From: Thermoanaerobaculia bacterium
Lineage (GTDB): Bacteria > Acidobacteriota > Thermoanaerobaculia > Gp7-AA8
DNA: 64,000 bases
Direction of reading: 5' to 3'
Assembly: GCA_035276475.1 (NCBI GenBank)
Contig: DATELQ010000037.1
Coordinates: 2,482-66,481 of the forward strand
This document shows positions 14,263 to 63,874 of the stretch, one piece after another. How positions within the stretch are numbered: the stretch's first letter is position 1; every line of letters begins with the position of its first letter. The notes beneath the pieces were generated by a model. It was not told the DNA's origin. It ran no database searches and was given only the letters and a program-made list of their open reading frames with translations. A program made the position numbers and the translations under genes.

Positions 14263-15482
14263 GTCTTGGTCTCCTTCGCCGGCTCCTTCGTCGCTTCGAC
14301 GTGCGCGCCGTCCTTGAGACTCTTCAGGATCCGAAATGGTCCGGTGACGATCTTGTCGCCCGCTTTGACGCCGCTCGTGATGGCTACGTTGGTCGCGTCG
14401 CTGATCCCCGTCGCCACCTCGGTCATCTTGGCCACGCCGTCCTTCACCACGAATACGTATTTTTTCTTCGGCGCGTTCTCGTCGACCGTGTCGGTCTTCT
14501 TCGCTCCGGCCACCGGCGGCACGCGCTCGACGACGGCCTGGATCGGCACCGCCACCGCGCTCGGCGCGGAGAGCGTCGTGATCGACACCTGCGCGGTCAT
14601 GCCGGGGCGGAGACGGTCGTCGGCGTTCTCGATTGCGGACTTCACCTTGAAGTAGCGCATCCCCGAGCCGGCGCTGGCGCGCTGCGTAGCCGAGCTGCCG
14701 ATCTCCACGACGCGGCCGACGTAGTCCTTGTCCGGCACGGCGTCGACTTTGATCTTCGCCGGCTGCCCGAGCTTGATTCCGACGACTTCAGTCTCGCCCA
14801 CGTCCGCCTCGGCGAGGATCTCCGCCAGGTCGGCAATCACCGCAATCACCGACGCAGGATTGTTCATCGTCCCGGTGACGACGACTTCGCCCTCGTGGGC
14901 GTTGAGCTGCACGACCTTCCCGTCGATCGGCGAGACGATCGTTGTGTGCGACAGGTCGGTCTGCGACGACGTCAGGAGGGCCACGGCCTGCCGGACCCCT
15001 TCCTGCGCCGAGGCGTAGCCGGCGCGGGCGTTCTCGATGTCGAGCTTGGCCTTTTCGAAGATCTCCTGCGCCTGGATCCCCTGCGTCTGCATGTTCACGG
15101 CGCGTTTGTACGCGAGGTCGGCCGTCGCCAGCGCCACGCGCGCGCGCTCGACCTCGATCTTTCGGTTCTGCACCTCGGCCTGGGCGCGCTGGTACTGCGC
15201 TTCGTAGGCCGGGCGCTCCAGATCGATGAGCTTCTGGTTGCGGCGCACCATGTCGCCCTCTTTGATGTAGAGGCGCTCGATCTTGCCGACGATGTGCGCG
15301 CTGATGTTGACCTTGAGACTCGGGTTGATCTCCGCGGGCGCCGTGACGACCGACTCGATCTTCTTCGTCTTCACCGTGTCGATGTAGACCTGCTCGGCGT
15401 TCGACGAGGTCGATTTGATGCTGAAGAGGACGATGACGGCGACGACGATGACGGCGCCGCCGATGATCAGCGTCCGCTTCAC
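14259..15482 (-). CDS. efflux periplasmic adaptor subunit (MacA/HlyD family)
   Basis: 407 aa; N-terminal TM, coiled-coil and beta-barrel/lipoyl pattern; ATGA overlaps with both neighbours. Confidence 0.85.
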
Positions 15483-16222
15483 TTAGCCCTCATCTTCGCC
15501 ATCGCTCCCCCGCCCAAGGCAAAGAGAGTCCCGATGCACCACACCACGAACACGACCGCTGCGGTCTTCGCCTTCGACAGGCGCGAGGACGCCGACAGTC
15601 CGATCACCACCAGGATGAGCGTCCAGAGGAGGAAGAGGTCGAAGCGCTGCAAGACCGCCCACAGCATCGGATTGGCCTTGAAGCTCGTAAGGAACGCGGG
15701 ACTCGATCGGACGATCGTCTCCACCTCCTGCGGGGCGATGGAGTTCTTCGTCAGGACGATCGGAATGCGCACGAGCATCCGTATGGCCAGCGGCATCCAC
15801 GAGTAGAGCACGACGGAGAAGACCTGCGCATACGTCGCTACGCCGCCGAGCATCTTCGTGCCGACCCAGTAGAGGAGCGCGGCCACGGCGATGAAGCCGA
15901 TGATGAAGATCGGGCTGAGATACTGCGCGCCCTTCGCGAAGGCGAGGCCGATCCTCATGGCCTGATCCGCCTGCGGCCCCGAAACGCCCTTTGCGTCCAT
16001 GGCCTCGCGCATCTGGGATTCGAAGTCCAGACGCGGCACCGTCACGATCACCGCGGCGAAGGCGACGAGCACGATGACAATCGCCGGCACGACCCAGTCA
16101 GGCTTCCGGGCGATCTCCGCGAAGGTCTGACCGGGCGAAAAGAGCACGCCGATGATGCGGCTGAACGAGCTGGAGGGCTTTTCGCTGGGCGGCGCTTCGA
16201 CCGCCGGGCTGACGTCCGTCAT
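15479..16222 (-). CDS. Yip1-domain integral membrane protein
   Basis: Start set at internal MTDVSPA, giving an ATGA overlap with TolC stop; 5 predicted TM helices in Yip1-like arrangement. Confidence 0.6.
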   Translation of the reverse strand: MTDVSPAVEAPPSEKPSSSFSRIIGVLFSPGQTFAEIARKPDWVVPAIVIVLVAFAAVIVTVPRLDFESQMREAMDAKGVSGPQADQAMRIGLAFAKGAQYLSPIFIIGFIAVAALLYWVGTKMLGGVATYAQVFSVVLYSWMPLAIRMLVRIPIVLTKNSIAPQEVETIVRSSPAFLTSFKANPMLWAVLQRFDLFLLWTLILVVIGLSASSRLSKAKTAAVVFVVWCIGTLFALGGGAMAKMRAK

Positions 16223-17928
16223 TTCTTCTTCTCCTCGGTGTTGGACTGCTGTTTTTCGTAGTTCAGCCAACTATACCGGTCGAAGAAAGTAAAGAGACGG
16301 GGTTCCTGCACGGTTTCCTGATCCACCTTGATGTTGCGGACGTCGAGGAGGTCGCCGACGGCGCGGTGGTACGCGGAGACGGCCTTGTTGTAGGCGACGA
16401 GGGCCTGGAGCTCGCGGGCGCGGGAGTCGGAGAGCTGCTGCTGGATCTGCAGGACCTGGAAGATCGTGGTCATGCCGTTCTCGTAGCGCTTCCGCTCCGC
16501 GTCGAGGTTCTGCTCCGCGGCCTCGCGCGCCGTCTTCGTGGCCGTGATCTCCTTCGCCGCCGTGTCGGTGGCGCGGGCGGTATTGCGGACTTCGAGGGCG
16601 ATGTTCTGCCGGGTCTGGTCGGTCAGGATGCGCGTGCGGTCGACTTCGAGCTCCGCGCGCTTGGCCTCGGCGCGCGCGCCGATGTTCAGCACCGGCACGC
16701 CGACGAGGAAGCCGACGGTCCACGACGGAAAGTTGTTGCCGAGGACCTGGCCGACGGCGTGCGGCAGCCCGGTGCTGTCGAAGCCGATGACCTGGTTGGT
16801 GACGGGATCGACGATCGGGGCGCGGCCGCCGAGGCCGGCGGCGGTGTAGTTGACGATGGCGTCGAGCTTCGGCCGGACCTGGTTGCGCGCGTAGGTGTAC
16901 TGCACCTGCGCGTTAGAGGTGGTGAGCTGCGACTCGCGCAGCTCGGGCCGGAGGTCGAACGCGCGCGCCAGGGAGTCCTGGACGTTGATCGTCATCGGCG
17001 TGTACGTGACCGTGTCGGTCGGCACGATCGGCCGGTCCCATTCCTCCTGCGGGAGGTTGAGCAGCGCGCGGATCTGGTCCTCGGCGTCGCGCACCGACGC
17101 GATGGCGGCGATGAGCGACTCCTCGGTCGTGGCGATCTGCACTCGCGGCTGGAGGATGTCGAGCGGCGCCGAGGCGCCGACGTTGATGCGGATCTGGGTG
17201 ATGCGGGCCTGGTCGCGGGCCAGGAAGAGCGCTTCCTTCTGCACGTCGACGAAGCGCCGCGCGTAGACGAGGTCGAGGTAGGCCTGCTCGGTGGTGACGA
17301 CGGTGTTGATCAGGATGCGCCGGAACTCCTCGGAGTTGATGCCGAAGGTATTCCGCGCGATGGTGATCTGCCGGCGGTTGATGTCCATGCCGAAGTTGCG
17401 CAGCAACGGCTGCTGCAACCCGAGCGAGAGCGAGGAGCCGAACGCCGGCGACACCGTGGTGAAGCCGCCCGTCTGCACGAGGCGGTTGTTGTCGACGAAG
17501 ACGGAGTACGTGCCGCCGGTCGGCAGGAGCTGCGACACGCCGAGGTTGACGAACGTGTTGCGGCTTGCCGATGCCGTCGCCTGCGACGAGACCGGGCTCT
17601 CCTTGCTCGAGTGCTCGATGTCAGCGGTCGTGAACCAGTCGAACGGCCCGTAGGCCTCGCGCAGGCTCTGGCCGGACTCGCGCCAGTCGTAGCGCTGCAC
17701 CTGCACGCCGAGGTTCTGCCCCACGGCCGTGCGGATGGCCTCGTCGAGCGAGAGCTTCAGCGCCCGCGGGTTGCTGACGTCCTTGTCCGTCTCGGCCGTC
17801 ACCGGCGACGTGTAGGTCTCTTCTTTCTGTTCCTGCTGCGTAGTCGTCGTCCCTGGCGTCTGGGCGATGAGCGCAGTCGCGCTCAGCGCAAAACAGGCGG
17901 AGATCAGGACACGGCGGATTTGCGACAT
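16219..17928 (-). CDS. TolC-family outer membrane efflux protein
   Basis: Start set at MSQIRRVLISACFALSATALIAQ (signal peptide), preceded by GGAGGAATCCGC-ATG Shine-Dalgarno; two outer-membrane-efflux repeats. Confidence 0.85.
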   Translation of the reverse strand: MSQIRRVLISACFALSATALIAQTPGTTTTQQEQKEETYTSPVTAETDKDVSNPRALKLSLDEAIRTAVGQNLGVQVQRYDWRESGQSLREAYGPFDWFTTADIEHSSKESPVSSQATASASRNTFVNLGVSQLLPTGGTYSVFVDNNRLVQTGGFTTVSPAFGSSLSLGLQQPLLRNFGMDINRRQITIARNTFGINSEEFRRILINTVVTTEQAYLDLVYARRFVDVQKEALFLARDQARITQIRINVGASAPLDILQPRVQIATTEESLIAAIASVRDAEDQIRALLNLPQEEWDRPIVPTDTVTYTPMTINVQDSLARAFDLRPELRESQLTTSNAQVQYTYARNQVRPKLDAIVNYTAAGLGGRAPIVDPVTNQVIGFDSTGLPHAVGQVLGNNFPSWTVGFLVGVPVLNIGARAEAKRAELEVDRTRILTDQTRQNIALEVRNTARATDTAAKEITATKTAREAAEQNLDAERKRYENGMTTIFQVLQIQQQLSDSRARELQALVAYNKAVSAYHRAVGDLLDVRNIKVDQETVQEPRLFTFFDRYSWLNYEKQQSNTEEKKK

Positions 17929-17978
17929 GCGGATTCCTCCTAAGACTCGCCTCATGTACGAAGTTCTGTTTGGATTGT

Positions 17979-20224
<2,246 letters not shown>

Positions 20225-43136: not shown

Positions 43137-45161
43137 TCATTCGATGTAGCCGACGACGACCGTACCACGCGGAACTCTCGTTCCCGCTTTCGGTTCCTGA
43201 TGCCGCACGTAGGCCGAATGAGAGGGCTTCCCGCTGTATTGCGACAAGAAGCGAAGCCCGTATTTCTCGACCTCTGCTCTCGCCTGGTCTGCGCTCATCT
43301 TGAGGATGTACGGGACGACGACTTCGTCAGACAAATTGCGACCGGTCGACACATACACGGTGATGACCGATCCGCGCTTGACGAGCGTTCCTGGCGGCGG
43401 GTCCTGGCGCACGATGAGGCCGCGTGCGGCTCTGCTGTCGACGGATTCTGCACGCAACGTCAACCCCAGCCACGGGAGGTCGTCGGACGCCTGCATCCAT
43501 GTCTCTCCCCTGAGCTCGGGCACGATGACCGGCGGAGGTGGAGGCACGGGCGTAGGCGTGGGAGTAGGGGCAGATGACGACGACGATGGAGGTGGAGGTG
43601 GATGCGGCGGGCTCGGAACGAGCGGCGATGCGAGCTGCGCATATGCCTCCGAGTAGCTCTGTGCCAATTCGGAACGACCCAGTTTTGTCAGCGCTACGTC
43701 CGCGGCATGGAACGGAGCGGCGAAATCTGGATCGGATTGCGTGGCCCGCAGGAACGAAGCGAGTGCCTCCTCCCAATTTCCGCGGCGTGCGTGCAAGTAG
43801 CCCATGTAGAGGTGCGCGGGTGCGAACGAGGGGTCGCGCCGCAGGACGTCCTGGTATTGCGCGGTGGCGCGCTCGACGTCATTCGCCGCCTCGGCGACGC
43901 GCGCCAATCCGACGCGCGCGAACAGCGACTCCGGCTCGAATTTGAGGGCCAGGTTGAAATACCTCCGAGCCTCTTCGAGATTCGCGTTGGCGCGCAGCAG
44001 GGCCACCTCGCCGCGATGATAGGCAGGCTTGGCATGGTTCGGTTCGGCGCGGCCTTGGAGCGCCGGCTCGAGCACCTTGTCATACGCACTCTCGGCGCGT
44101 TCCAGGAGTTTTCGTGCCCCATCGGCGTCTCCTCGGCGATAGGCGGTCCCAGCTTCGTCAAGATAAAAATCTCCGGCGTCGTTGTTGGAAACGAATGCCG
44201 AGGGATTGATCTTGATAGCCCTCGCCAAGCGTTCCCCAGCTTTCGTGAAATCGCCCACCAGACGGTACGCCGTAGCGAGATTGTGATTGTAGACAGCGAC
44301 GTGACGCTCGTCGCCGGCGGAGGGCTCGCCACTTTTGACATAGGCCGCAATGGCCTTCGCCGGTTCCGCCCAATCGACATAGACATTGCCGAGGATTTCG
44401 AACTGCCCTTTGTCCTCAGGAGACCAGATCGTCCGGAAGCGCGCTTCACGATACGCGGCCGCGCGCTCTTTGTCGGAATCGAAGTTCGGAATCAACTGCA
44501 CGGACGGCCGCGCCGGCCGCATGGAGAGAATCACGTTCGCGTTGGCGTCGACGGCCTTGCGCACGCTCTCCTCGCCCGCAGGGCTGACCTCTGGTGACGC
44601 GCCGCCGGACGGAATCGTGAGACGGCGGAGAGGCGTCAGCCGGCGCCCGAGGCGTGCCTCCGGCGGCGCGACGGGCATGACCTCGAGCTCTCCTTCGAGT
44701 TGGAGAATCTCCGTTCCCGCCTCGGTCACTTCGACCTGGAATTCCGTTCCCTTTGCGGCAAGCGTCACGGTTTGCGTTCTTGCCTCGAAAAATCCCCGCA
44801 AGGTCGCAAACAACTTTCCAACGAGCAGGAAGATGGACTTCGAATTCGCCAGTTCGAACGAAGTGACGCCGTGAACCGTGATGTCTGCTTCCGACGCGCC
44901 GAGGGACATGACCAGAACCGAGGCGCCCAAAACCTGGATCCGGTCGCCGGCACAGAGCGGCATCCCCTTCCGAACCCTCGTCGACATCTGCCGGCGGATG
45001 ATCTTGATCTGCTCCTCGCCGGCGGACTGGGTGCTGACCGAGCCGATCGCGATGCCGGTGATTCGTCCGACCACCGGCGTATTGCACGACACTTCGTCCG
45101 GGGCGGCAAATCCGCTGGCTGCAATGGCCGACAATGCGACGACAGCCAGCGCCGTGCGCAT
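43137..45161 (-). CDS. secreted FecR-domain / TPR / proline-rich linker / tandem PASTA-domain protein
   Basis: 674 aa; signal peptide; FecR-like LAAKGTEFQVEV; TPR array; PPHPPPPPSSSSSAPTPTPTPVPPPPPV linker; two C-terminal PASTA-like modules. Confidence 0.7.
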   Translation of the reverse strand: MRTALAVVALSAIAASGFAAPDEVSCNTPVVGRITGIAIGSVSTQSAGEEQIKIIRRQMSTRVRKGMPLCAGDRIQVLGASVLVMSLGASEADITVHGVTSFELANSKSIFLLVGKLFATLRGFFEARTQTVTLAAKGTEFQVEVTEAGTEILQLEGELEVMPVAPPEARLGRRLTPLRRLTIPSGGASPEVSPAGEESVRKAVDANANVILSMRPARPSVQLIPNFDSDKERAAAYREARFRTIWSPEDKGQFEILGNVYVDWAEPAKAIAAYVKSGEPSAGDERHVAVYNHNLATAYRLVGDFTKAGERLARAIKINPSAFVSNNDAGDFYLDEAGTAYRRGDADGARKLLERAESAYDKVLEPALQGRAEPNHAKPAYHRGEVALLRANANLEEARRYFNLALKFEPESLFARVGLARVAEAANDVERATAQYQDVLRRDPSFAPAHLYMGYLHARRGNWEEALASFLRATQSDPDFAAPFHAADVALTKLGRSELAQSYSEAYAQLASPLVPSPPHPPPPPSSSSSAPTPTPTPVPPPPPVIVPELRGETWMQASDDLPWLGLTLRAESVDSRAARGLIVRQDPPPGTLVKRGSVITVYVSTGRNLSDEVVVPYILKMSADQARAEVEKYGLRFLSQYSGKPSHSAYVRHQEPKAGTRVPRGTVVVGYIE

Positions 45162-46610
45162 TTACGTCCCCTCGTTCTCCGAAGGTTTGGCGGACAAAGC
45201 CGGCGCGGCTCCGCAGTAGTAATACGACGCAATGACGGCGACTGCGCCGTATCCGACGTCGAAGAGCACCGAAGCGCTGCGGTAGAAGATCCAGACCACG
45301 ATCGCGTACAGCACGAGGAGCACGATCAGGCCCGCGGGGAGCTTGCGCTTTCCGGCGACCTTCGTGTCGACTTCGATGTCTGACTTCGGTAGTGACGATC
45401 GGCCAAAGCCGGCGATCGCGCCGAGGAGGAGCAGCACCGAAAGGTTGGCCCAGCCGGGCAGCGTTCGCGGATAGGTGTTGCGCGACAAGTCGCTGAAAAC
45501 GCTGGCGTGAAGCTGATAGCCGTATGCCTTGACCTGAGGCGTGATCTCGCAACGCTCCCTCTCGGTCTTTACGCCGATAAGCACGATCTGTCCCTTGTAC
45601 TCGTTTGCAAGACTGGACAGACGCTTGAGCTCTTTCACATATGAGTCGCCTTCGCCGAAACCGCGCCGGCCATAGCGAAGCGGCATGGTGGCGATGTTGT
45701 GACCGGTCTCGTCGGATTCGATCGTGCAGGAAATGCGGTCGATCTCCCGGTCGCCGGCATAGAGGATCAGACGTCGCGCTTTGGTGTCGAGCCTGACGGA
45801 CGGCCGCGCCTTCGACGATGGACTCTTCTCCAGAATTCGCATCATGACCGCGAGCGAGGCATACGCATCTTCCGGCGATACCGCGACGTTTGCGGGGAGC
45901 TTCGACCGCGCCAGCACGTATTTGCGGACGTACTCCGTGGAGGCGCCATGCTCGAGCCGCTTTCCACCGACGTGGACCCATCCCCAGGCGACGTCTTTGA
46001 ATGCATCGAGCAGGTCGGGGGTGTCATCGTTGCGCAGATCAGCTCCGAGCAGGATGCTCGTGGTCGCGCTCTGCACGGCTTTCACCATTTCGGCGTTGGC
46101 GCTCTGATACTCCGCGCCGTCGTTCGGCGAGGGAAACGTCAGATCGAACGCGACGAACTTCGGCGCATTCGCGAGCGCCTGAAGGAACAAGGCGTGCTGC
46201 CGCCGCCATAGTTGTTCCTCTTGAGCGAAATTGCCGCGGACGTTCTCGAGCGTGTCTTTCTCGTCGATATACAGCATGTGCAGCGACGGCGTGGATCGCG
46301 CCGCGACGCTGTATTCCATCTGTTCGAGCTGCAGACGCTCGAGCCAGTCGTCGATGCCGAGAAGGTTGAGCAGGTGAGTGAATGAGGCTAGGGAGACGGC
46401 GAGTACGACGAGAAAGAGTTTCCACACGAATCGCGCACGGCGATGATTCGTGACCAGCAGGAGCTTCCGCAGCGTATGACCTCCGGACGTATGCAGATCA
46501 TGATACGCGCGACCGGCCTCGAGGATGCGATCGGGACGTACTGGCGCGACCGGCTGTAATTTCGCTGAAACGCTAGCGGTCTTTCCGTCACTACATAACG
46601 GAATGACCAT
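45162..46610 (-). CDS. stand-alone CHASE2 sensor-domain membrane protein (no output domain)
   Basis: N-terminal TM, about 300-aa extracytoplasmic CHASE2-like region, 3 C-terminal TM; start uncertain (ATG at 46610 would overlap the divergent gene by 8 nt; a downstream GTG is possible). Confidence 0.65.
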   Translation of the reverse strand: MVIPLCSDGKTASVSAKLQPVAPVRPDRILEAGRAYHDLHTSGGHTLRKLLLVTNHRRARFVWKLFLVVLAVSLASFTHLLNLLGIDDWLERLQLEQMEYSVAARSTPSLHMLYIDEKDTLENVRGNFAQEEQLWRRQHALFLQALANAPKFVAFDLTFPSPNDGAEYQSANAEMVKAVQSATTSILLGADLRNDDTPDLLDAFKDVAWGWVHVGGKRLEHGASTEYVRKYVLARSKLPANVAVSPEDAYASLAVMMRILEKSPSSKARPSVRLDTKARRLILYAGDREIDRISCTIESDETGHNIATMPLRYGRRGFGEGDSYVKELKRLSSLANEYKGQIVLIGVKTERERCEITPQVKAYGYQLHASVFSDLSRNTYPRTLPGWANLSVLLLLGAIAGFGRSSLPKSDIEVDTKVAGKRKLPAGLIVLLVLYAIVVWIFYRSASVLFDVGYGAVAVIASYYYCGAAPALSAKPSENEGT

Positions 46611-50692: not shown

Positions 50693-51028
50693 CTAGCGGA
50701 TCGTCGCCCGCTCCAGCGCGCCGGCCGCCGCGAGCACTTCGCGCAGCTCGCCGCTCGCGCGCTCCACGTCGTCGACGGCGATGCGCAGGAACATCTCGCC
50801 GCCCCCCGAGCCGGAGTCGTCGACCTTGCCGATGCCGCGCTTGGCGATCTCGTCCTCGATCGTGTTCCGCAGTTGCAGCTCCTCGCGCATGGCCATCCCC
50901 TTTCCCATCAACCGGATCGACACGACGACGTGCGGCCGCGCGTCCTCGGCGCGCAGGCGCTCCGCTTTCTTGCGCACGAAGTGGCCGAAGATGATGAAGA
51001 GGACGAGCGGGACGATGATCCAGACCAC
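50693..51028 (-). CDS. small membrane-anchored hypothetical protein (N-terminal TM, cytoplasmic tail)
   Basis: About 111 aa from in-frame GTG overlapping upstream stop (TAGTG); VWIIVPLVLFIIFGHF TM. Confidence 0.4.
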   Translation of the reverse strand: MVWIIVPLVLFIIFGHFVRKKAERLRAEDARPHVVVSIRLMGKGMAMREELQLRNTIEDEIAKRGIGKVDDSGSGGGEMFLRIAVDDVERASGELREVLAAAGALERATIR

Positions 51029-51495
51029 TACACGGCCTCGCGCGCGCGCTGCCGCTGGGCCAGGCGCTGGAGGAAGTCGTAGGCGAGGCCGCCGCTGGTG
51101 CGCTTGAGCGTGAGGAAGTAGACCGCCAGGGCGACGACCCCGCCGATCCAGGCCAGCGCGCCGAGCTGGTTCGTGCGCCCGGCAAAGAACGGCCAGAGCG
51201 TGAACAGCAGCGCCCCGGCCACGCCCGCGAGGAGCAGCGCCAGCCGCTGCGCCTTCGGCGCGTCGATCTCGCGGTTGCAAACGAGCGTCACCGTCGTCTC
51301 GCTCTCCGCCGCCCACGACACCGTGCACTCCACCCCGCCCGCCACCGCCACCCCGCGGCGCAGCGGCAGCACGAAGTCGCGCTCGTTGTCGCGCTCGGCC
51401 TTCATCTCGCCGCCGTAAAGGTCGACGAGCTCCGCGATCGTCTCTTCGATGCCGTCGCGGGGGATGCGGTCTTCGGTCAGCTCAACGGGGGTCAT
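51028..51495 (-). CDS. hypothetical membrane protein (soluble N-domain then 2 TM)
   Basis: 155-aa ORF; C-terminal LALLLAGVAGALLFTLWPFF and LAWIGGVVALAVYFL helices. Confidence 0.5.
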   Translation of the reverse strand: MTPVELTEDRIPRDGIEETIAELVDLYGGEMKAERDNERDFVLPLRRGVAVAGGVECTVSWAAESETTVTLVCNREIDAPKAQRLALLLAGVAGALLFTLWPFFAGRTNQLGALAWIGGVVALAVYFLTLKRTSGGLAYDFLQRLAQRQRAREAV

Positions 51496-51536
51496 GCGGG
51501 TCTGTCGAACTACTCCTACAACGAAAGGGGATAGTC

Positions 51537-51944
51537 ATGTCAACCACGAATGACGCCGAAGTCACGAAGTACACCGTCGTCGTGAACAGCGGTCAGGCCA
51601 CGCTCAAGGCATTGATGACGTTGAACGGCGGTGCCACGGTCGCGTTTTTGGCATTCATGGGGCACCTCTTGGAAAAAGGCGAGCCCGCTGCGAATCTCCA
51701 CGTGCTGCTGGGCGCGCTGCCGTATCTCATCGGCGGCACCTTCTGCGCGGTCCTGGGCTACGGCCTGATCTTCCTCACGGGCTGTTGCAGCTTGGCCCGA
51801 TGGCACACGGCGTCGAACGTCATGTTCGGCTCCGCAGTCTTCGTCTGCGTCGCGTCCATCGTCTTCTTTCTTTTGGCGAGCTTGCGCGCGGTGAGCGCGT
51901 TCGACTTCCTGACTCAGTCCCGCACCGCAATGTTGTATTTCTGA
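51537..51944 (+). CDS. hypothetical integral membrane protein
   Basis: 135 aa; AAAGGGGA SD 7 nt upstream; 4 predicted TM. Confidence 0.5.
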   Translation: MSTTNDAEVTKYTVVVNSGQATLKALMTLNGGATVAFLAFMGHLLEKGEPAANLHVLLGALPYLIGGTFCAVLGYGLIFLTGCCSLARWHTASNVMFGSAVFVCVASIVFFLLASLRAVSAFDFLTQSRTAMLYF

Positions 51945-54900
51945 ATCTTTGCCTTCAGCGTGTTCCGGGCCAGTCCGAGCCGCCGCGCCGCCTCGCGGAT
52001 GCGGCCGCCCGACGACTCCAGCGCGCGCTCGATGAGCTGGCGGTCGACCGACGACATCACCTCGTCGTAGATGTCGCTGGTGATGTCCATCTTCCCGATC
52101 ACGGGATTGAGCAGCGAGCTCGGCATCGGCACGGGGCCGGCGTCGGGCGAGGGCGGGACGATGTCGGTGAAGAGCCCGTAGAAGTCGTTGCGCGTGATCG
52201 TCTCGCCGTTCGACATCACGATGGCGCGGTGCAGCGTCGCCTCGAGCTCGCGGATGTTGCCGGGCCAGTTGTAGCGCAGGAAAAGATCGAGCACGCCCGG
52301 CTCGAGATGCTTCGTCTCGATGCCGAGGTCACGGCAGATCTTGCGCATGAAATGCTCGGTCAGGACCGGGATGTCGTCCTTGCGCTCGCGCAGCGGCGGG
52401 AGGATCAGCGGGATGATGTTGAGGCGGTAGTAGAGATCCTCGCGGAACGTCCCCTGATCGATGGCCTTCTCGATGTCGAGGTTCGTCGCGGCGATGATCT
52501 TCACCTCGGTTTTGATCGTCTGCGTGCCGCCGACGCGCTCGAACTCCTTGTCCTCGACCACGCGCAGCAGCTTGGCCTGGATCGCCAGGCTCACCTTCCC
52601 GATCTCGTCGAGGAAAATCGTCCCGCCGTTGGCGAGCTCGAAGCGGCCGAGCTTGCGGCGGTCGGCGCCGGTGAACGAGCCCTTCTCGTGGCCGAACAGC
52701 TCCGATTCGGCCAGCGTCTCCGGCAGCGCCGCGCAGTTGAACTTGATGAACGGACCGTTCCGGCGCGGCGAGACGTTGTGGATGATGCGCGCCACGAGGC
52801 CCTTGCCCGAGCCCGACTCGCCGCGCAGCAGCACCGTGGAGTTCCCGCTGGCGGCCTTGCGGATGGAGAACTGGATCTTCGCCACCGCCTCCGACTGCCC
52901 GACGATCGAGTCGAGGTGCTTCTCGATCAGCACCTCGCGGCGCAGCGACTCATTCTCAAGCGATAGCCGCGTGCGCGCCTCCTCGAGCTCCTCGTACAGC
53001 CGCGCGTTCTCGATGGCGATCGCCGCCTGATCGGAGAACGCTTCGAGGAAGTTCAGATCCTTCTGCGAGAAGAGGTGCCGGGCCTGGCGATGGTCGACGT
53101 AGATCGCGCCGGCGATGCGGTCCTTGATGATGAGCGGCACGCAGAGGATCGAGAGGATGTTCTCCGTGATCACCGACTCCGACTCCACGAAGCGCTCGTC
53201 CGCGCGCGCGTCGGCCGACATCACCGACTGCCCGCTCTGGATCACCTCGCGCACGATCGACTGCGGCGAGCGCTTCGAGTCGGACTCCCCCTCGTTGATG
53301 TTGCGCACCACGCGCGTGCGCAAGGCGCTCGTGATCGGATCGAGCAGCAGGATCATGCCGCGCTCCGCGCGCAAACGCCGGATCGCGAGGTCGAGCACGC
53401 GCGACAGCACTTCCTGCAGGTCGAGCGAGGAGTTGATGATCTTGACGACTTCGTAGAGCCCGACGACCGCGCTCGGCACCTGCACCTTGCCGCCCGGGCG
53501 GATGCGGAACAGCGCGCCGCGGGCGCGCTCGAGGTCGTGCGGGGCGTCGAGGCGCTCGAAGATGCGAATCGCGCCGCGGATCGTCTGCGTGGCCTCCTCG
53601 GCGTCGTCCTTCAACAGTCCGATGTCGAACAGCAGCCGCCCGAGCTCGTACGGCGTCTCCAGCTCCTCGAACGTCACGCGCGCCGCTTCGAAGCGGACGT
53701 TGGCGGCTTCGCGGTCGCCGTTGGCGTAGAGGATCTTCCCCCACATCCAATCGTTCTTGGCCTTGCTGAAGCGGTCGCCGAGCTGGTCGGCGTACTGTGC
53801 GCCGAGCTCCGCGTGCTGCATGGCGTCGTCGAGCTTCTGCTGCGAGAAGCAGAGGCTGGCCTTGGCCGTGTGCGCGCGGGCCAGGCCGTTCGTCGTCTGC
53901 TTGTCCTCGAAAATCTTCAGCGCGCGGCCGAGGTAGCGGTCGGCGTCGACGTAGTTCTCGCGCTCGTCCTCGATCGCCGCAAGCACGTAGCAGGCCTCGG
54001 CGATGCTGTCCTCTTCGCGGGCGCGCTCGGCCGCCGAGAGCGCCTTCTGCACGTACTCGAGGGCTTTGGCGATGTCGCCCTTCTTGTTCATCAGGCGCGC
54101 CAGCGGGATGTAGACCGACGAGCGCGACGCACGCGACTCGTCGAAGCCGCGCATGTTGATGCAGCGCGTGTACTGCTCGAGCGCATCGGCCCAGCGCCCG
54201 AGCATCTCCAGCGCCTCGCCGGCGTTCTCGCGCGCCAGGGCCTCGTACTCGATCGCGCCGATCTTCTCGTCGATGCGCACGGTCTTGTCGAAGTATTCGA
54301 GCGCGGAGTGGAAGTTGCCGCGCCCGAACTCGATGATGCCGACGTTGTTGTAGGCGGTGATGAGGTCCCACAGGTCGCCCTCGGACTCGGAAAGCTCGAG
54401 GTTCAACTTGTAGTACTGCAGCGCGCTCGTCCAATCGCCGGTCTTCCAGAGCGTGTTGCCGAGGTTCGTCGACGCCACCTTGGAGAGTTGCTCGGAGCCG
54501 ACTTTCGATCCCACTTCCACGGCCTGCAGCAAGAGCTCCTTCGAAGCCTGCCAGTTGCCGAGCGAGTACTCGATCGAGCCGAGCGTGTTCTTGATGTAGC
54601 CGTAGACGATGTTCGGCTCTTTGCCTTCGAGCAGCGCCTCCGCGCGCTCCGACGTCTCCCGCGCCGTGGCGTAGTCGCCCATGTCCTTATACAGCCAGGC
54701 CATGCGGTTGAGGAGCTCGGCCAGCTCGATCGTCTCGCCGAGGCGCTCGTAAATCTCGCGGGCGTTGTTGTAGTACGAGAGCGCTGAGTCCTGCTCGCCG
54801 CGCTTCGTCAGCACCTTGCCGATCTTCTTCATCACCCGGGCGAGGTCGGCGTTCGCCTCGTGGTCCTTCGCGCGGGTCTGGATGCTCTTCAGAAGGTACT

Positions 54901-57184
54901 GGTACGCCTGCATGGCGCCGCGGAAATCGTTGCTGCGGTAGTAGGCGTCGGCGAGCTTCTCGCGCACCTCGGCCTTGTGCGCCTCGTCGTGGCCGGCCAG
55001 GTCCATCAGGTCGAGCGCGCTGCGGTAGAACTCCGTCGCCTCCTCGTGCGCGAGCGTGCGGAAGGCGAGGTCGCCCGCCTCGACGGCGTAGCCGATCCCC
55101 TTCTCCGGCTCGTCGGCGCGCGCGAAGTGATACGCGACCTGGCCGAGGAGCTGCGTCAATCCGCCGGCAAGCAGCGGCTCGAGCACGTGGCCGACGCGGT
55201 GATGCAGCTCGCTGCGCCGGCGGTCGTGCATGGAGTTGTAGAGCGCGTCGCGCAGGTGGATCTGCGGGAAAGAGACGCTCTTGCCGTCCGAGGCTTCGTC
55301 GAGGAGACCGTCGCGGATCAGGTCGCGCAGGATGAGATACGCCTTCTCGGCCGACGCGTCCGCTGCCTGCGTCAGGAGATCGACCTCCGACACTTCCCCG
55401 AACACCGCCGCCGTCTCCAACAGCGCGCGCTGCTCGTCGGTGAGGTCGTCGACCTTCTCCATCAGGATCGACGCCGCGCCGCCGGGGATGCGCAGCGCGC
55501 GGATGCGGTCCATCTCCACCATCCAGCCGTTCGCCGTCCAGCAGAGGAAGTCGTGGGCGATGAGGTAGTCGACGATGCGGCGGATGTTCAGCGGCGAGCC
55601 GGTCGACTCCCACAACATCCAGCGCACGAATTCGTCGGAGACGTTCTCGTACCCGAGGAGCGATTGCAGGTGCTCGCGGACGAGTGCCTCGTTCAGCGTG
55701 GAGACGCGGATGAGCGGGAAGCTCCCCTCGCGGGCGCGTTGCTCCCACGCCACGAGCTCCGCCGAGCCGTCGTCCGCGGTCAGCGTGCCGATGACGAGAA
55801 GGCGGTTCTGCTTCGCCTCGCCGACGAGGAACGAGAAGAGCTCGCTCGTCGACGGATCGGCCCACTGCAGGTCTTCGATGAGGATGATGAGCGGCGAGCC
55901 GCTCCCCTCGCCGGCAGAGAGGAACCCGTACATGTCCTGCATCGATTGCACGATGCGGTTGTAGAGGCGGTATTTCTGGCTGTGCGCCGGCGTCGTCTCT
56001 TCGCCCTGCGGCGGCACGAGCGGCCGCAGCAACCGCCGCAGCTCCTCGGTGACGTCGGCGCTCGGGTTCACCGCCGCGACCATCTGCTGGAAGATCTCGA
56101 AGAACGGCGCGTAGATCGTCTTGCGGTTGATCGGGCAGCGGCCGCAGAAGACGCGCGCGCCGTCGAGCTGCGCGCGCAGCGTGGCGTCGCGCACGATGCG
56201 GCTCTTCCCCATCCCCTCGGGGCCCGCAACGATGACGCCGCAGCCGCGGCCGTCGCGCGCGTCGCCGATCATCGTGGCGAGCTGGTTGATCTCGTGCTTG
56301 CGCCCGATCAGCGGCGCGGCAAAGAGCTCGCCGCGGCCGACGAGAAGCTCGCCCGCCGGCGCGGTCTTGCCCGCCGCTTGCGCGACCGCTTGCAGCAGCG
56401 CGGCGGCGGAGACGAAGCGGTGCCGCGGGTCCTTCTCGAGCAGCTTCATGATGATCTGCTCGAGCGCGTCGGGCACGCGTGGGTTGATCGACGACGGCGG
56501 ACGGATCTCGCCGTCGAGGTGGAGGCGGATGACTTCGATCTGCTGTTTGCCGTACGCCGGCAGCGCCCCGGTGACGGTCTCGTACAGCGTCATGCCGAGG
56601 GCGTAGAGGTCGGCGCGGGAGTCGACGCGGTCCTGGCGCAGCACCTCGGGCGCCATGTAGTGCAGCGTGCCGCGGATCTGCCGGTCGAGGACCTGATGGC
56701 TTTCGACGGCGACGCCGAAGTCCATGATCTTGGCCTGCCCATGGTCGCTGACGAGGATGTTCGAGGGCTTGAGGTCGAGGTGGATGATGCCGAGGTGGTG
56801 GATGTGGTGCAGCCCCGAGGCGATCTGCAGGATCACGTCGTAGAGCGCGTCCCAGTTCTGGCCGTCGAAGAACTCGGAGATCTTCCGGCCGGCGAAGTAC
56901 TCCATGGTGAAGTACGGGAAACCGTCGTCGAGCAGGCCGAAGTCGAAGACCTTGACGATCGACGGGTGCTCGAGGCCGGCCAGCGTCGCGAACTCTGCCT
57001 TGAACCGTAGGAGTTGCTGCGGCTCGGAGAGCTCGTGGCGGAGGATTTTGATGGTCTCGTCGCGCTTGTCGGAGACGTCGAAGACCCGATAGACGGCGAC
57101 GGCGGGGGTTTCTTTCAGGACCGTCCGGATTTGGAACCGCGGCGGCAGCTGAAGTTCGGGCGCGAGTGTCTCGGCTGTGGTCAT
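51914..57184 (-). CDS. giant multidomain regulator: Ser/Thr kinase / P-loop (STAND/AAA) NTPase / TPR array / GAF / sigma-54 activator AAA+ domain / Fis-type HTH
   Basis: 1756-aa uninterrupted ORF; kinase (IKIL Lys, HLDLKPSN, DFG, APE; no Gly loop); P-loop GPEGMGKSR; long TPR; GAF; sigma54 domain (GESGSGKG, GSFTGA, DEIG); C-terminal HTH RIREAARRLGLARNTLKAKIQKY. Confidence 0.85.
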   Translation of the reverse strand: MTTAETLAPELQLPPRFQIRTVLKETPAVAVYRVFDVSDKRDETIKILRHELSEPQQLLRFKAEFATLAGLEHPSIVKVFDFGLLDDGFPYFTMEYFAGRKISEFFDGQNWDALYDVILQIASGLHHIHHLGIIHLDLKPSNILVSDHGQAKIMDFGVAVESHQVLDRQIRGTLHYMAPEVLRQDRVDSRADLYALGMTLYETVTGALPAYGKQQIEVIRLHLDGEIRPPSSINPRVPDALEQIIMKLLEKDPRHRFVSAAALLQAVAQAAGKTAPAGELLVGRGELFAAPLIGRKHEINQLATMIGDARDGRGCGVIVAGPEGMGKSRIVRDATLRAQLDGARVFCGRCPINRKTIYAPFFEIFQQMVAAVNPSADVTEELRRLLRPLVPPQGEETTPAHSQKYRLYNRIVQSMQDMYGFLSAGEGSGSPLIILIEDLQWADPSTSELFSFLVGEAKQNRLLVIGTLTADDGSAELVAWEQRAREGSFPLIRVSTLNEALVREHLQSLLGYENVSDEFVRWMLWESTGSPLNIRRIVDYLIAHDFLCWTANGWMVEMDRIRALRIPGGAASILMEKVDDLTDEQRALLETAAVFGEVSEVDLLTQAADASAEKAYLILRDLIRDGLLDEASDGKSVSFPQIHLRDALYNSMHDRRRSELHHRVGHVLEPLLAGGLTQLLGQVAYHFARADEPEKGIGYAVEAGDLAFRTLAHEEATEFYRSALDLMDLAGHDEAHKAEVREKLADAYYRSNDFRGAMQAYQYLLKSIQTRAKDHEANADLARVMKKIGKVLTKRGEQDSALSYYNNAREIYERLGETIELAELLNRMAWLYKDMGDYATARETSERAEALLEGKEPNIVYGYIKNTLGSIEYSLGNWQASKELLLQAVEVGSKVGSEQLSKVASTNLGNTLWKTGDWTSALQYYKLNLELSESEGDLWDLITAYNNVGIIEFGRGNFHSALEYFDKTVRIDEKIGAIEYEALARENAGEALEMLGRWADALEQYTRCINMRGFDESRASRSSVYIPLARLMNKKGDIAKALEYVQKALSAAERAREEDSIAEACYVLAAIEDERENYVDADRYLGRALKIFEDKQTTNGLARAHTAKASLCFSQQKLDDAMQHAELGAQYADQLGDRFSKAKNDWMWGKILYANGDREAANVRFEAARVTFEELETPYELGRLLFDIGLLKDDAEEATQTIRGAIRIFERLDAPHDLERARGALFRIRPGGKVQVPSAVVGLYEVVKIINSSLDLQEVLSRVLDLAIRRLRAERGMILLLDPITSALRTRVVRNINEGESDSKRSPQSIVREVIQSGQSVMSADARADERFVESESVITENILSILCVPLIIKDRIAGAIYVDHRQARHLFSQKDLNFLEAFSDQAAIAIENARLYEELEEARTRLSLENESLRREVLIEKHLDSIVGQSEAVAKIQFSIRKAASGNSTVLLRGESGSGKGLVARIIHNVSPRRNGPFIKFNCAALPETLAESELFGHEKGSFTGADRRKLGRFELANGGTIFLDEIGKVSLAIQAKLLRVVEDKEFERVGGTQTIKTEVKIIAATNLDIEKAIDQGTFREDLYYRLNIIPLILPPLRERKDDIPVLTEHFMRKICRDLGIETKHLEPGVLDLFLRYNWPGNIRELEATLHRAIVMSNGETITRNDFYGLFTDIVPPSPDAGPVPMPSSLLNPVIGKMDITSDIYDEVMSSVDRQLIERALESSGGRIREAARRLGLARNTLKAKIQKYNIAVRD

Positions 57185-57235: not shown

Positions 57236-57345
57236 ACGGGTCAGAAAAGTGACCACGAACCAGGGGACGGGTGACGGGGAACAGGGCACAGGAGTATCGC
57301 CGCGAGAACACCTGTCCCCTGTTCCCTGTGACCTGTCACCTGCGC
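57236..57345. repeat. palindromic intergenic repeat element, copy B (same family as 1666-1756)
   Basis: caggggacgggtgacggggaacagggcacagg ... cctgtcccctgttccctgtgacctgtcacctg inverted arms in the divergent spacer between the two kinase genes; coordinates +/-1. Confidence 0.8.
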
Positions 57346-57363: not shown

Positions 57364-59802
57364 TTGTCGGAGTTCCCGCAAACGTTCGACCGCTTCGAGG
57401 TTTCCCGCGTCCTCGGCCGGGGCGGCATGGGAACGGTCTACCTCGCCCGCGACGCCCGGCTCGACCGCCTCGTCGCCATCAAAGTGCTGAATGTTCAGGA
57501 TTTGGCCGCCGAGGACCGGCGGGTCAAGTTTTTACGCGAGGCGCGCAACGCCGCGTCGATCCGGCATCCGAACGTCGCCACCATCTATGAGGTTGCGGAG
57601 ACGGACGACGGTCACCCCTTCATCGTCATGGAGTACTGCGAGGGGGAGACGCTCTCGCAGCGCCTCCGCCGCCGGCCGCTCGACGCCGGCGAGTTCCTGA
57701 GCATTGCCCGGCAGATCGCCGCCGGCGTCGCCGCCGCGCACGACGCCGGCATCGCCCACCGCGACCTCAAGCCGGGCAACATCATCATCGAGCCGACCGG
57801 GCAGGTGAAGATCCTCGACTTCGGCCTGGCCAAGTCGCTCTTGCGCGATGCGTCGAAGTCGTTCGATTCGTCGACGAGCCGGAAGCTCTTCGGCACGTTG
57901 CACTACCTCTCGCCCGAGCAGTGCCGCGGCCTGCCCGCCGACGCGCGCAGCGACCTCTTCTCGACGGGCGTGATCTTCTACCAGATGGCGACGGGGCAAC
58001 TGCCGTTCAACGCCGAGGCGCCGCTCGTCGTCGTGGAGAAAATCTGCGACGCCGAGCCCGAGCCGTTCGTGCCGAGCGATCCGGCCTTTCCGCTGACGGC
58101 GGCGAAGATCATCGGGAAGCTCCTGAAAAAAGATCCGGCGCATCGCTACCAGAGCGCGCGCGACCTTCTCTCCGACCTCGACGAGATCGACACGCCGACG
58201 GTGCGCATGAGCGCAGCGCAGACGCGCAGCATGATCGGGCGCACGATCGCCCGGCCGCCGCGCTGGGGACTCCTCGCCCTCATCCTCCTCGCCTTCCTCG
58301 GCGGCGGCGCCGGCATCTGGTGGCTGTCGACGCGGGAAAGGCCGCTGCCGGAATCGCCGGCCACGCCGCCGCCGCCGATCCGCTCGATGGCCGTGCTGCC
58401 GCTCGACAACATCTCCAGCAGCACGCGCGACGAGTTCCTGAGCGTCGGCCTGGCGGACGCGCTCGTGACGAAGCTGCAGAAGATTCCGTCGCTCCAAGTC
58501 CGCCCCACCTCGGCGGTGATGGAGTTCAAGAACAAGAAGGTCGACAGCCGCACGGCCAGCGACCACCTCCGCGTCGACGGCGTGCTCGAGGGACATTTCC
58601 TCTCCGCCGGCGATCTGGTGCGCGTGAACCTGCAGCTCACCGACGGCCGCACCGGCTACAGCGTGTGGGCCGACACGGTCGACGGCAATCGCGCCGATCT
58701 GTTGAAGCTGATCGACGAGGTGTCGTCGCGCACGGTCACGGCGCTCAACGAGAAGCTCGGCGTGCGCGACATGACGCGCGGCTCGGTGCCGCGGTCGTCG
58801 AACCCGAAGGCGTACGAGGAGTATCTGAAGGCGCGCGCGATCGACGGGAGCCTCGTCCCCGCCGAGCACGACGAGCAGATCGCGCATCTCAAGCGTGCCA
58901 TCGCGCTCGATGCGAATTTCGCCGCCGCCTACGCCGACCTCGCGGTGGCGCTGTCGCTCGGCCAGTCGCGCGGTCTTGCGCACGCCGGCGATACGCCGGA
59001 GCGGACGGAGTGGTACGCGCGGCAGGCCGTGCGCCTCGATCCGAACCTTCCCGACGCACACCTCGCGCTCGGCCGTGCCTTTGCCCGTTTGAACGACCGC
59101 TTCCGTGAATCGGTGCGCGAGTATCTCGCCGCGCTCCGCCTCAACCCGAGCGCGCCGCAGGCGCTGAACTCGGTCGGAACGTACTTCGTCGCCGATGGCG
59201 ACACACAGAAGGCGCAGTGCATCACGGAGCATCTCGTGCAGATCGATCCGAATTCGAACGAGGCCAAGATCCGCGGCTACAACTTCGTGAACGCGGTGGA
59301 CGGCGAGAATGCGCTGAAGGCGTCGGCGGACGCGGCGGCCTCACCCGACACGGCGCTGGCCGGCCACGACATCCGCGCCAACGCCTACCTTCTCCTCGGC
59401 AACATCGCCGCCGCGCAGCAGGAGGCCGCACAGCTCGCGAAGCTCGCTCCGAATCACTACTCCGGCAAGAGCATCAAGGCCATGATCGCCGCCGCGAACG
59501 GCGACCGCGCCGCGTGCGAGGCCGCGCTGAAGTCGTTCGAAGCGGACGCGGAGCGCGTGCATTGGGCGGCCATGCGCCAGGCATTGTGCTATGCGAAGCT
59601 CGGCGATCGCGACGCTGCCATGAAGTGGGTGCGCCGCGCGGCCGAAGGCGGAAATCACAGTTGGTTCGCCTGGGTGAAGCACCCATGGCTCGAATCGCTG
59701 CAATCCGATCCCGAATATCAAACGATCGTCGCAAAGATGAAATCCGACCTCGACGACGTGCGCGACGACGTCATCGGCGTGTATCAGTTGATTTGCCGGT
59801 AG
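57364..59802 (+). CDS. Ser/Thr protein kinase with TM and periplasmic TPR domain
   Basis: Start placed at in-frame TTG after the repeat element; GRGGMGTVY, AIK, HRDLKPGN, DFG, SPE; TM WGLLALILLAFLGGGAGIWWL; C-terminal TPRs. Confidence 0.85.
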   Translation: MSEFPQTFDRFEVSRVLGRGGMGTVYLARDARLDRLVAIKVLNVQDLAAEDRRVKFLREARNAASIRHPNVATIYEVAETDDGHPFIVMEYCEGETLSQRLRRRPLDAGEFLSIARQIAAGVAAAHDAGIAHRDLKPGNIIIEPTGQVKILDFGLAKSLLRDASKSFDSSTSRKLFGTLHYLSPEQCRGLPADARSDLFSTGVIFYQMATGQLPFNAEAPLVVVEKICDAEPEPFVPSDPAFPLTAAKIIGKLLKKDPAHRYQSARDLLSDLDEIDTPTVRMSAAQTRSMIGRTIARPPRWGLLALILLAFLGGGAGIWWLSTRERPLPESPATPPPPIRSMAVLPLDNISSSTRDEFLSVGLADALVTKLQKIPSLQVRPTSAVMEFKNKKVDSRTASDHLRVDGVLEGHFLSAGDLVRVNLQLTDGRTGYSVWADTVDGNRADLLKLIDEVSSRTVTALNEKLGVRDMTRGSVPRSSNPKAYEEYLKARAIDGSLVPAEHDEQIAHLKRAIALDANFAAAYADLAVALSLGQSRGLAHAGDTPERTEWYARQAVRLDPNLPDAHLALGRAFARLNDRFRESVREYLAALRLNPSAPQALNSVGTYFVADGDTQKAQCITEHLVQIDPNSNEAKIRGYNFVNAVDGENALKASADAAASPDTALAGHDIRANAYLLLGNIAAAQQEAAQLAKLAPNHYSGKSIKAMIAAANGDRAACEAALKSFEADAERVHWAAMRQALCYAKLGDRDAAMKWVRRAAEGGNHSWFAWVKHPWLESLQSDPEYQTIVAKMKSDLDDVRDDVIGVYQLICR

Positions 59803-63484: not shown

Positions 63485-63874
63485 ATGACCGAACGTCAGC
63501 CTCCCCGCCCCACCGACGCCGAGCTGAGCATCCTCCGCGTCCTCTGGCGCCGCGGCCCCTCCACCGTCCGCGACGTCCAGGAGGACCTCATCCAGGAGAA
63601 CCCGACCGGCTACACCACCGTACTGAAGCTCTTGCAGATCATGACGGAGAAGGGACTCGTCGTCCGTGACGAGGCGCAGCGCGCCCACGTCTACGACGCG
63701 CGGTACAGCGAGCAGAAGACGCAGCGCCAGCTCCTGGCCGACCTCGCCAACCGCGCCTTCGACGGCTCGGCGGCGAAGCTCGTCATGCAGGCGCTCTCGG
63801 GGCGCAAGTCGTCGGCCGCGGAGCTGACGGCGATCCGCGAGCTGCTCGACAGAATCGAAGGAGAGACGAAATGA
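63485..63874 (+). CDS. BlaI/MecI/CopY family transcriptional repressor
   Basis: 129 aa; LSILRVLWRRGPSTVRDVQEDL ... GYTTVLKLLQIMTEKGLV winged helix; C-terminal dimerisation helix. Confidence 0.85.
   Translation: MTERQPPRPTDAELSILRVLWRRGPSTVRDVQEDLIQENPTGYTTVLKLLQIMTEKGLVVRDEAQRAHVYDARYSEQKTQRQLLADLANRAFDGSAAKLVMQALSGRKSSAAELTAIRELLDRIEGETK

Follow-up and report, generated by a model that had tools for sequence, protein, structure and literature searches.

We have analyzed a 64,000-nucleotide stretch of contig DATELQ010000037.1 from a Thermoanaerobaculia bacterium (the window), in which one gene on the minus strand (51914..57184) encodes a regulator of 1756 amino acids (aa). This regulator carries, in order, a Hanks-type Ser/Thr kinase domain, a STAND-type P-loop NTPase, a TPR sensor array, a GAF domain, a sigma-54 interaction AAA+ domain, and a Fis-type helix-turn-helix (HTH) DNA-binding domain. 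Profile matches and alignments divide the protein into a PknK/MalT-like sensor of 1240 residues at the N-terminus, made up of a Hanks kinase, a STAND NTPase, and TPRs, and a sigma-54 activator of the NifA type (GAF-AAA+-Fis-HTH) in the C-terminal 515 residues, which is complete and has an intact sigma-54 contact loop. Direct coupling of Ser/Thr-kinase and STAND signaling to sigma-54-dependent transcription is a reasonable inference for this protein. Taken as a joint claim, we slightly favor the view that it is a sigma-54 activator which is switched by its kinase and STAND modules and paired with a membrane receptor kinase encoded by the neighboring gene.

Domain architecture of the regulator

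The reading-frame check of the window showed a single intact open reading frame (ORF) of 1756 codons with an ATG start, in agreement with an earlier interpretation made from the letters of the DNA (the sequence-only reading), which had described an uninterrupted 5.27-kb ORF. The N-terminus of the protein is conserved in its orthologs. The kinase, STAND, TPR, GAF, sigma-54 activator, and HTH assignments of the sequence-only reading were all recovered by the Pfam profile search, in which the domain scores were far over the curated cut-offs, and every motif that it quoted (ETIKIL, HLDLKPSN, DFG, YMAPE, GPEGMGKSR, GESGSGKG, GSFTGA, and DEIG) is present.

The kinase domain occupies aa 13-268 (56381..57148, minus strand, as are all the domains that follow), with a Pkinase (PF00069) match at aa 30-261 (E 1.5e-41; 143 bits, cut-off 31.7). 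It is of the non-RD type (HLD) and has no Gly-rich loop. The STAND NTPase core at aa 291-465 (55790..56314) matched AAA_16 (PF13191; E 2.7e-30; 106.5 bits, cut-off 32.6). It is followed by the STAND helical arm and the TPR sensor array at aa 466-1230 (53495..55789). In this region, TPR_12 and TPR_MalT matches lie at about aa 770-1100, with TPR_12 in five stretches (1.6e-40), TPR_MalT at aa 915-1096 (8.1e-15), and SNAP/RPN7-like helical repeats at aa 770-889. The array was therefore present as the sequence-only reading had it, but its length of about 600 aa was an overestimate, since the recognizable TPR and helical repeats cover approximately 450-530 aa.

The GAF domain at aa 1254-1392 (53009..53425; GAF 1.1e-17, GAF_2 7.8e-18) is connected to the AAA+ domain by a linker at aa 1393-1426 (52907..53008), which was read from the sequence, contains ARLYEELEEARTRLSLENESLRREV, and is predicted to form a helix or a coiled coil. 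The sigma-54 interaction AAA+ domain and its lid occupy aa 1427-1668 (52181..52906). Sigma54_activat (PF00158) matched aa 1427-1593 over profile positions 1-167 of 168 (E 6.7e-69; 231 bits, cut-off 20.2), and AAA_lid_14 matched aa 1599-1668 (4.7e-22). The Fis-type HTH domain is located at aa 1713-1750 (51935..52048; HTH_8, E 3.6e-11).

Authenticity and conservation of the fusion

An identical protein (P0001) is recorded from a Thermoanaerobaculia metagenome-assembled genome (MAG) under the name "sigma 54-interacting transcriptional regulator". Among the matches listed by the first protein search were 120 clusters that share its Pfam set, at 71-93% identity and 97-100% coverage. The sequences of this clade stem from JGI, ENA, NCBI, and Logan assemblies, and we aligned 113 full-length relatives (1738-1793 aa, 71-94% identity) to determine the conservation.

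A long ORF of this kind could in principle be an artefact, in which a chimeric assembly or a frameshift joined a kinase-STAND gene to a separate NifA-like gene. On the one hand, separate neighboring kinase and enhancer-binding protein genes do exist in other genomes, and tblastn joined them wrongly: the apparently full-length matches in Bacterium HR10 (L032), Planctomycetales 71-10 (L049), and Pedobacter (L055) were separate adjacent genes, and these were rejected. On the other hand, the 113 relatives come from independent assemblies and several pipelines and share one continuous architecture, and two of them are found on contigs that are 5.9 Mb and 1.9 Mb long. Because the identical protein and the 113 full-length orthologs occur in independent assemblies, the comparison identifies the fusion in one polypeptide, as claimed in the sequence-only reading, as genuine. 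The artefact explanation, to which we give a practically negligible probability, is refuted as far as sequence comparison allows.

The alignment also showed which positions are fixed in the orthologs. In the kinase domain, K46, E64, D137, K139, N142, D155-F156-G157, and P179-E180 are invariant; in the STAND NTPase, G324, G326, K327, and D438; and in the sigma-54 AAA+ domain, G1455-K1461, G1502, F1504, T1505, G1506, A1507, D1526, and E1527. Since the key residues of these three nucleotide-binding modules are invariant in the 113 sequences, the alignment indicates that the catalytic residues of all three are under selection on function. In addition, the HTH block R1730-K1746 is nearly all invariant, and in the linker between the GAF and AAA+ domains almost every position is invariant or nearly so.

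Sigma-54 output module

Bacterial enhancer-binding proteins (bEBPs) serve as obligatory switches of sigma-54 transcription, and their known control is exerted by receiver, PAS/V4R/ACT, GAF, or PRD domains or by trans-acting partners. The output module of the regulator has the AAA+ domain, the Walker A (GESGSGKG) and Walker B (DEIG) motifs, a GAFTGA-type loop, and the Fis-type HTH domain of this family, and we predict its membership on these features. Both Walker motifs are invariant or nearly so among the orthologs. The L1 loop GSFTGA is encoded at 52664-52681, and its G, F, T, G, and A residues are invariant, with position 1503 alternating between A and S (GAFTGA or GSFTGA). The change from A to S at the second position of GAFTGA is found in LevR, an experimentally validated activator (PMC3162934). 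Because of this precedent and the alternation among the orthologs, the GSFTGA sequence is compatible with function.

The last 515 residues aligned end to end with NifA in the NCBIfam and PDB searches, and aa 1243-1755 matched the NifA structure 9qq6_C with an E value of 9e-91. An identity as NifA itself was considered and rejected. The match to the NifA equivalog model TIGR01817 (E 2.3e-135) has a score of 452.4 bits, which is under the cut-off of 528.85, and nif genes were not found among the gene calls of the 64-kb window. Accordingly, JGI over-annotates the protein with the name "Nif-specific regulatory protein". As for sigma-54 itself, the three cultured Acidobacteria in the survey of Francke (2011) possess the factor. 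An RpoN-box motif was not found in the window and three related loci, a scope that is uninformative on the whole genome.

Divergent receptor kinase partner

Divergently from the regulator gene, a gene on the plus strand (57364..59802) encodes a canonical receptor Ser/Thr kinase of 813 aa (Pkinase 1.6e-51, with TPR matches). Its translation contains the motifs GRGGMGTV, HRD, and DFG and one transmembrane segment near aa 300-320, and its extracytoplasmic region ends in TPRs. The gene caller placed the start at 57271; since the orthologs align from 57364, the start is most likely the TTG codon at that position, in agreement with the sequence-only reading.

Full-length orthologs of the partner (63-69% identity) occupy the same divergent position in all six loci for which upstream sequence was available (L002-L007). 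A more distant locus (L084), where the regulator ortholog is only 47% identical over the N-terminal 1200 residues, also has a divergent gene in the same position, encoding a Pkinase and TPR protein of 817 aa. The second kinase gene reported in the sequence-only reading is thus confirmed, and a receptor-kinase gene is divergently adjacent in 7/7 orthologous loci. The flanking PALP, Smr, and NadA genes are likewise conserved down to the 47%-identity ortholog. Beside the more distant family members in L010, L011, and L085, a divergent receptor kinase was not found. The conserved pairing represents a concrete, testable two-gene module.

In this respect the system resembles AfsK-AfsR of Streptomyces, in which the Ser/Thr kinase AfsK phosphorylates AfsR, a STAND-TPR transcription factor; we draw this analogy by description, together with the 7/7 synteny observed here. 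Unlike the regulator, AfsR has a SARP DNA-binding domain, acts at sigma-70 promoters, and has no kinase, GAF, or AAA+ sigma-54 domain.

Kinase domain and its competence

The first 270 residues of the regulator aligned with PknB (E 2.4e-39), and HLDLKPSN, DFG, and YMAPE are in place, with K46 located in ETIKIL. Because KETPAVAV, which contains no glycine, occupies the position of GFGGMSEV of PknB, the Gly-rich loop is absent. The sequence-only reading had already noticed this absence, and we find it fixed in the clade: GxGxxG is missing throughout the 113 orthologs, which have the consensus LKETPxTxVYRV. The catalytic-loop motif is HLD instead of HRD; therefore, the domain is a non-RD kinase.

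When we compared 34 distant members that have the full architecture, most of them kept the canonical GxGxxG. Nearly all were non-RD, with HxD in which the middle residue was G, L, F, Y, H, N, or another, and nearly all had a short activation segment without the phospho-threonines of PknB. Besides this clade (P0001, P0121), three more distant members (P0128, P0150, P0153) have also lost the Gly-rich loop. By this comparison the loss is a derived trait.

These features raise the possibility that the N-terminal kinase of this clade is a pseudokinase. Such a domain would serve in nucleotide binding or as a docking site for the receptor kinase, which would phosphorylate it and would be the sole active kinase of the pair. 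The replacement of the loop by K-E-T-P-A-V-A-V, its fixation in a clade whose wider family mostly keeps GxGxxG, and the canonical loop of the partner kinase all point in this direction. However, the remaining catalytic residues (K46, E64, D137, K139, N142, DFG, and APE) are invariant in the 113 orthologs, which is unusual for a dead kinase and argues against a fully dead domain, and non-RD kinases with short activation loops, as here, can be constitutively competent. Accordingly, we consider a pseudokinase rather unlikely, and it would in any case be compatible with a sigma-54 activator switched by the STAND module and paired with the receptor kinase.

Promoters and the intergenic region

We scanned the window for the sigma-54 consensus TGGCAC-N5-TTGCW with up to two mismatches and found 14 matches, compared with 17 expected by chance from shuffled sequence; none was upstream of the start of a neighboring gene. 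Strict scans of 15 related loci revealed no conserved sigma-54 site near the gene, and in a weighted scan of the window, background from GC-rich sequence was overwhelming. The sequence-only reading had proposed the adjacent small membrane-protein genes as targets. This proposal has no support, since the search revealed no -24/-12 promoter in the vicinity of these genes or of the regulator gene in any ortholog, and with the negative promoter scans we rejected both the small genes and the partner kinase gene as demonstrable sigma-54 targets. The adjacent genes are probably not targets, and distant sigma-54 targets are possible.

The palindrome GGTCAGAAAAGTGACC (57239..57254; GGTCA-N6-TGACC with an AT-rich center) lies in the short intergenic region that separates the two kinase genes and is the sole perfect copy in the 64-kb window. 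The palindrome is perfect and in the same position in 4/7 aligned loci (the window, L002, L003, and L006), and has one mismatch in the other three (L004, L005, L007). We regard it as a candidate operator that stands beside the promoter of the regulator gene and may be bound by the regulator's own HTH domain. A conserved 17-mer, GGGTTATATTCTCACCC (in the window, the variant GGGTTACTCTTGCACCC), lies 19-22 nt past the palindrome, ends at about 57195, and is flanked by GGGT/ACCC. Within GGGTTATATTCTCACCC, TATATT resembles a -10 box of the regulator gene, and a TACAAT/TAGAAT box precedes the partner kinase gene. Because of these -10-like boxes, both genes appear to be transcribed by sigma-70. The TGG...TTGCA of GGGTTACTCTTGCACCC was inspected by eye as a -24/-12 element and rejected; it has a GG-N9-GC spacing, and most orthologs have CTCAC there.

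An imperfect palindrome at 57261-57342, with 35-nt arms that are 83% complementary and a 12-nt loop, is also inserted between the kinase genes. By eye, it is absent at the same spot in L002 and L003, and L004 has a different, longer palindromic insertion at the corresponding site. The two insertions may be independent elements of the repetitive extragenic palindromic (REP) or miniature inverted-repeat transposable element (MITE) type.

The promoter results bear on the question of whether the regulator works without sigma-54 and instead represses or activates transcription with sigma-70, as do TyrR, DhaR, and others derived from bEBPs. It might, for example, bind the palindrome and control its own gene and the receptor-kinase gene. 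This would agree with the failure to find a sigma-54 promoter nearby and with a conserved palindrome beside sigma-70-like -10 boxes (TATATT; TACAAT/TAGAAT) in a short divergent intergenic region. However, sigma-70 autoregulation and distant sigma-54 activation are not mutually exclusive, and PspF and NtrC combine autoregulation at a sigma-70 promoter with sigma-54 activation. Moreover, the sigma-70-dependent relatives of bEBPs have lost or damaged GAFTGA (PMC3162934), whereas the loop of the regulator varies among orthologs only between A and S at its second position, which is tolerated, and keeps G, F, T, G, and A without exception. We therefore consider an action without sigma-54 improbable.

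Proposed switch mechanism

The STAND module has the Walker A motif GPEGMGKS and the Walker B motif LIILIED, which fit GxxGxGK[ST] and hhhhD[DE], and, as in the STAND class, an AAA_16 core is followed by a C-terminal TPR sensor after the NTPase. STAND regulators of the MalT type are oligomerization switches that depend on ATP and ligand. By analogy with MalT, AfsR/AfsK, NifA/NorR, and NtrC1, the STAND module of the regulator would act as an ATP-dependent switch. During signal recognition, a signal would reach the TPR array, or come via phosphorylation exchanged with the neighboring membrane receptor kinase, or both, and would drive ADP-to-ATP exchange and oligomerization of the STAND module. 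This oligomerization would gather the C-terminal AAA+ domains and so lead to the formation of a hexameric ring, which would then remodel sigma-54 RNA polymerase at the promoters to which the HTH domain directs it. Until the STAND module oligomerizes or a small ligand binds, the AAA+ domain is probably restrained by the GAF domain and the conserved linker.

A modular sensor logic of this kind is supported by a kinase-less protein with the order AAA_16-TPR-Sigma54-HTH in a Polyangiales MAG. Several points weigh against the mechanism. Since the Gly-rich loop is absent in the clade, it is uncertain whether the kinase domain of the regulator can carry out phosphotransfer. The part that the STAND module would play in AAA+ ring assembly is proposed solely by analogy with MalT and AfsR. 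In the window and in eleven related loci, no -24/-12 promoter with at most one mismatch was found in the 8-10 kb around the gene, and conservation of the palindrome is weaker in the 47%-identity ortholog.

We suggest more tentatively, and at less than even probability, that these proteins form a distinct, unrecognized class of bEBP, in which AAA+ ring assembly is gated by a STAND ATP switch under Ser/Thr phosphorylation exchanged with a dedicated receptor kinase. If this is the case, STAND gating would stand in place of two-component phosphorylation or a simple ligand sensor. An extracellular signal (via the partner kinase), a ligand or protein bound to the TPRs, a GAF ligand, and three separate nucleotide-dependent steps would then be combined in a single polypeptide before transcription starts.

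Distribution of the architecture and exchangeable outputs

To place the regulator in a wider family, residues 1-1200 were searched against 1.84 billion representatives at 50% identity, which gave 51,132 matches at E <= 1e-30, and the domain order was scored in the best 150 of these with hidden Markov models built from the family. The full kinase-STAND-GAF-sigma54 order was found in 34 of the 150 clusters, 25-47% identical to the query. With a Terriglobia member as the query, a second protein search added about 100 clusters (90% identity) that have the same Pfam set. Named members belong to Acidobacteriota (Thermoanaerobaculia, Terriglobia), Planctomycetota, Bacteroidia, Myxococcaceae, and Candidatus Edwardsbacteria. 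The scan of GTDB species representatives added a Calditrichota member, which had no GAF match at the threshold used, and the Polyangiales protein without a kinase (STAND-TPR-sigma54-HTH) mentioned above. All organism-named members with a sigma-54 output are from MAGs. Members are routinely annotated in the databases, under the two names given above. The architecture spans several phyla and is not rare.

In a Polyangiales MAG (L033, 7608-13114), two bEBP genes stand in tandem. The first encodes a protein of 605 aa with an FHA-like (Yop-YscD_cpl) domain followed by GAF-Sigma54-HTH, and directly after it comes a gene for AAA_16-TPR-Sigma54-HTH (1227 aa). Here, a kinase-responsive bEBP is located beside a STAND-regulated one.

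According to the sequence-only reading, kinase-AAA-TPR proteins normally bear a LuxR-type output or none. This turned out to be too narrow. In close relatives, the Pkinase-AAA_16-TPR-GAF chassis that bears the sigma-54 module here is followed by HisKA/HATPase (some with REC), SpoIIE (PP2C), or GGDEF, and one relative of the HisKA type (P0382) occurs in the cultured Haliangium ochraceum. Because the same chassis bears several different outputs, the domain comparison shows the N-terminal 1400 residues behaving as a portable sensor with exchangeable outputs.

Comparison with known systems

The regulator shares features with several known systems. With bEBPs of the NifA/NorR/FhlA type, which have the order GAF-AAA+-Fis HTH and form group 3 in the classification of PMC7175178, it shares the GAF domain, Walker A and B motifs, GAFTGA-type loop, lid, and HTH_8 within aa 1243-1755. 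In contrast to them, it has 1240 extra N-terminal residues with the kinase, STAND, and TPR modules, which place it outside the listed bEBP classes; this 2020 review distinguishes five regulatory classes, none with a kinase or STAND region (PMC7175178). With PknK of Mycobacterium tuberculosis and MalT, it shares a Hanks kinase, an AAA_16 NTPase, and a MalT-like TPR sensor in order, PknK being compared by architecture. Unlike these, its output is a GAF domain and a sigma-54 AAA+ domain rather than a LuxR HTH or no DNA-binding domain, and its kinase in this clade is without the Gly-rich loop.

The dual Ser/Thr-His kinases, such as P0382 of Haliangium ochraceum, have the same Pkinase-AAA_16-TPR-GAF region followed by an output module, which in these relatives is HisKA/HATPase, GGDEF, or SpoIIE and in the regulator is Sigma54_activat-HTH_8. 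Cyanobacterial proteins of the HstK type presumably resemble this chassis as well. The FHA-domain bEBPs of Myxococcus xanthus also link Hanks-kinase signaling to sigma-54 transcription; however, their phosphopeptide-binding FHA domain receives the signal in trans, whereas the kinase and STAND modules of the regulator are fused in cis.

On the one hand, every component of the regulator is already known, and the fusion is already annotated in databases and is not rare. On the other hand, the regulator is new as a bEBP in its kinase-STAND sensory module, which is undescribed, and in its dedicated receptor-kinase partner. In agreement with the sequence-only reading, which knew of no characterized member, none was found in full-text searches or in the bEBP classes of the 2020 review. 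The full-text searches gave no paper on kinase-fused bEBPs, and earlier work on the myxobacterial kinome may mention such fusions.

If the proposed mechanism is correct, a widespread class controlled by a Hanks kinase and a STAND module would add a eukaryote-like signaling route into sigma-54 regulation, and would be a natural case in which a single chain couples two different oligomerizing ATPases, a STAND and an AAA+ protein module. Acidobacteriota, Planctomycetota, and related lineages of soil and sediment, in which regulation is almost unexplored, have the family in abundance. The significance is limited in that all the parts are familiar, the organism-named members include no cultured source, and no target genes were identified in the examined loci.

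Neighboring genes

Downstream of the regulator on the same strand are two small genes (50693..51495, minus strand) without a Pfam match. The product of 51028-51495 has 155 aa with two C-terminal hydrophobic segments, and that of 50693-51028 has 111 aa with an N-terminal transmembrane segment. The 155-aa gene recurs downstream in L002, L006, L007, L008, and L009 and was not found downstream in L003 or L004, and the association of the two small genes with the regulator is loose. A third ORF (51537-51944, plus strand) encodes a multi-pass membrane protein of 135 aa, has a good ribosome-binding site (AAAGGGGA), and has no Pfam match. It is absent from the orthologous locus L002, where a gene for 163 aa lies 50 nt after the regulator. 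The sequence-only reading had placed three tiny genes (50693-51944) next to the regulator. They do adjoin it, but only two of them are downstream on the same strand, and the third is convergent with the regulator gene and overlaps its last 31 nt.

In L003, the small genes are replaced by a gene (15312-18863) that begins 1 nt past the regulator stop and encodes a TIR_2 and beta-propeller protein of 1183 aa, which may be an inserted defense or NADase gene.

We also considered whether the regulator serves in defense against phages or in a conflict system, built either on STAND proteins (Avs-like) or on kinases. The layout of a STAND NTPase followed by TPRs resembles defense sensors, PADLOC kinase and RtcR models matched individual domains, and the TIR-domain gene is directly downstream in one ortholog (L003). 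However, the PADLOC matches are generic (kinase, RtcR-type AAA+), with no Avs/STAND model among the 25 best of 40, and Pfam showed no nuclease, protease, or other effector domain. The TIR neighbor occurs in one locus only, and the synteny with PALP, Smr, NadA, and the receptor kinase is stable down to the 47%-identity ortholog, whereas defense islands are usually variable. Accordingly, we regard a role in defense as highly improbable.

Further along the window, another sensory gene pair is located at 43137-46427 on the minus strand (L001 20758-24048); it encodes a CHASE2 protein of 421 aa and then a protein of 674 aa with TPR and PASTA matches. Beside a more distant family member (P0150), the intergenic region downstream in L085 (about 13440-13515) contains GGGGCCGTAGCTCAGATGGGAGAGCGCC...GGTTCGATCCCGATCGGCTCCACCA, which by eye is tRNA-gene-like. 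Near the end of the window, a gene at 63485-63874 on the plus strand encodes a BlaI-like repressor (Penicillinase_R, 129 aa), and it is followed by a gene for a BlaR1-like Peptidase_M56 protein that extends beyond the window end (L001 1686-3700).

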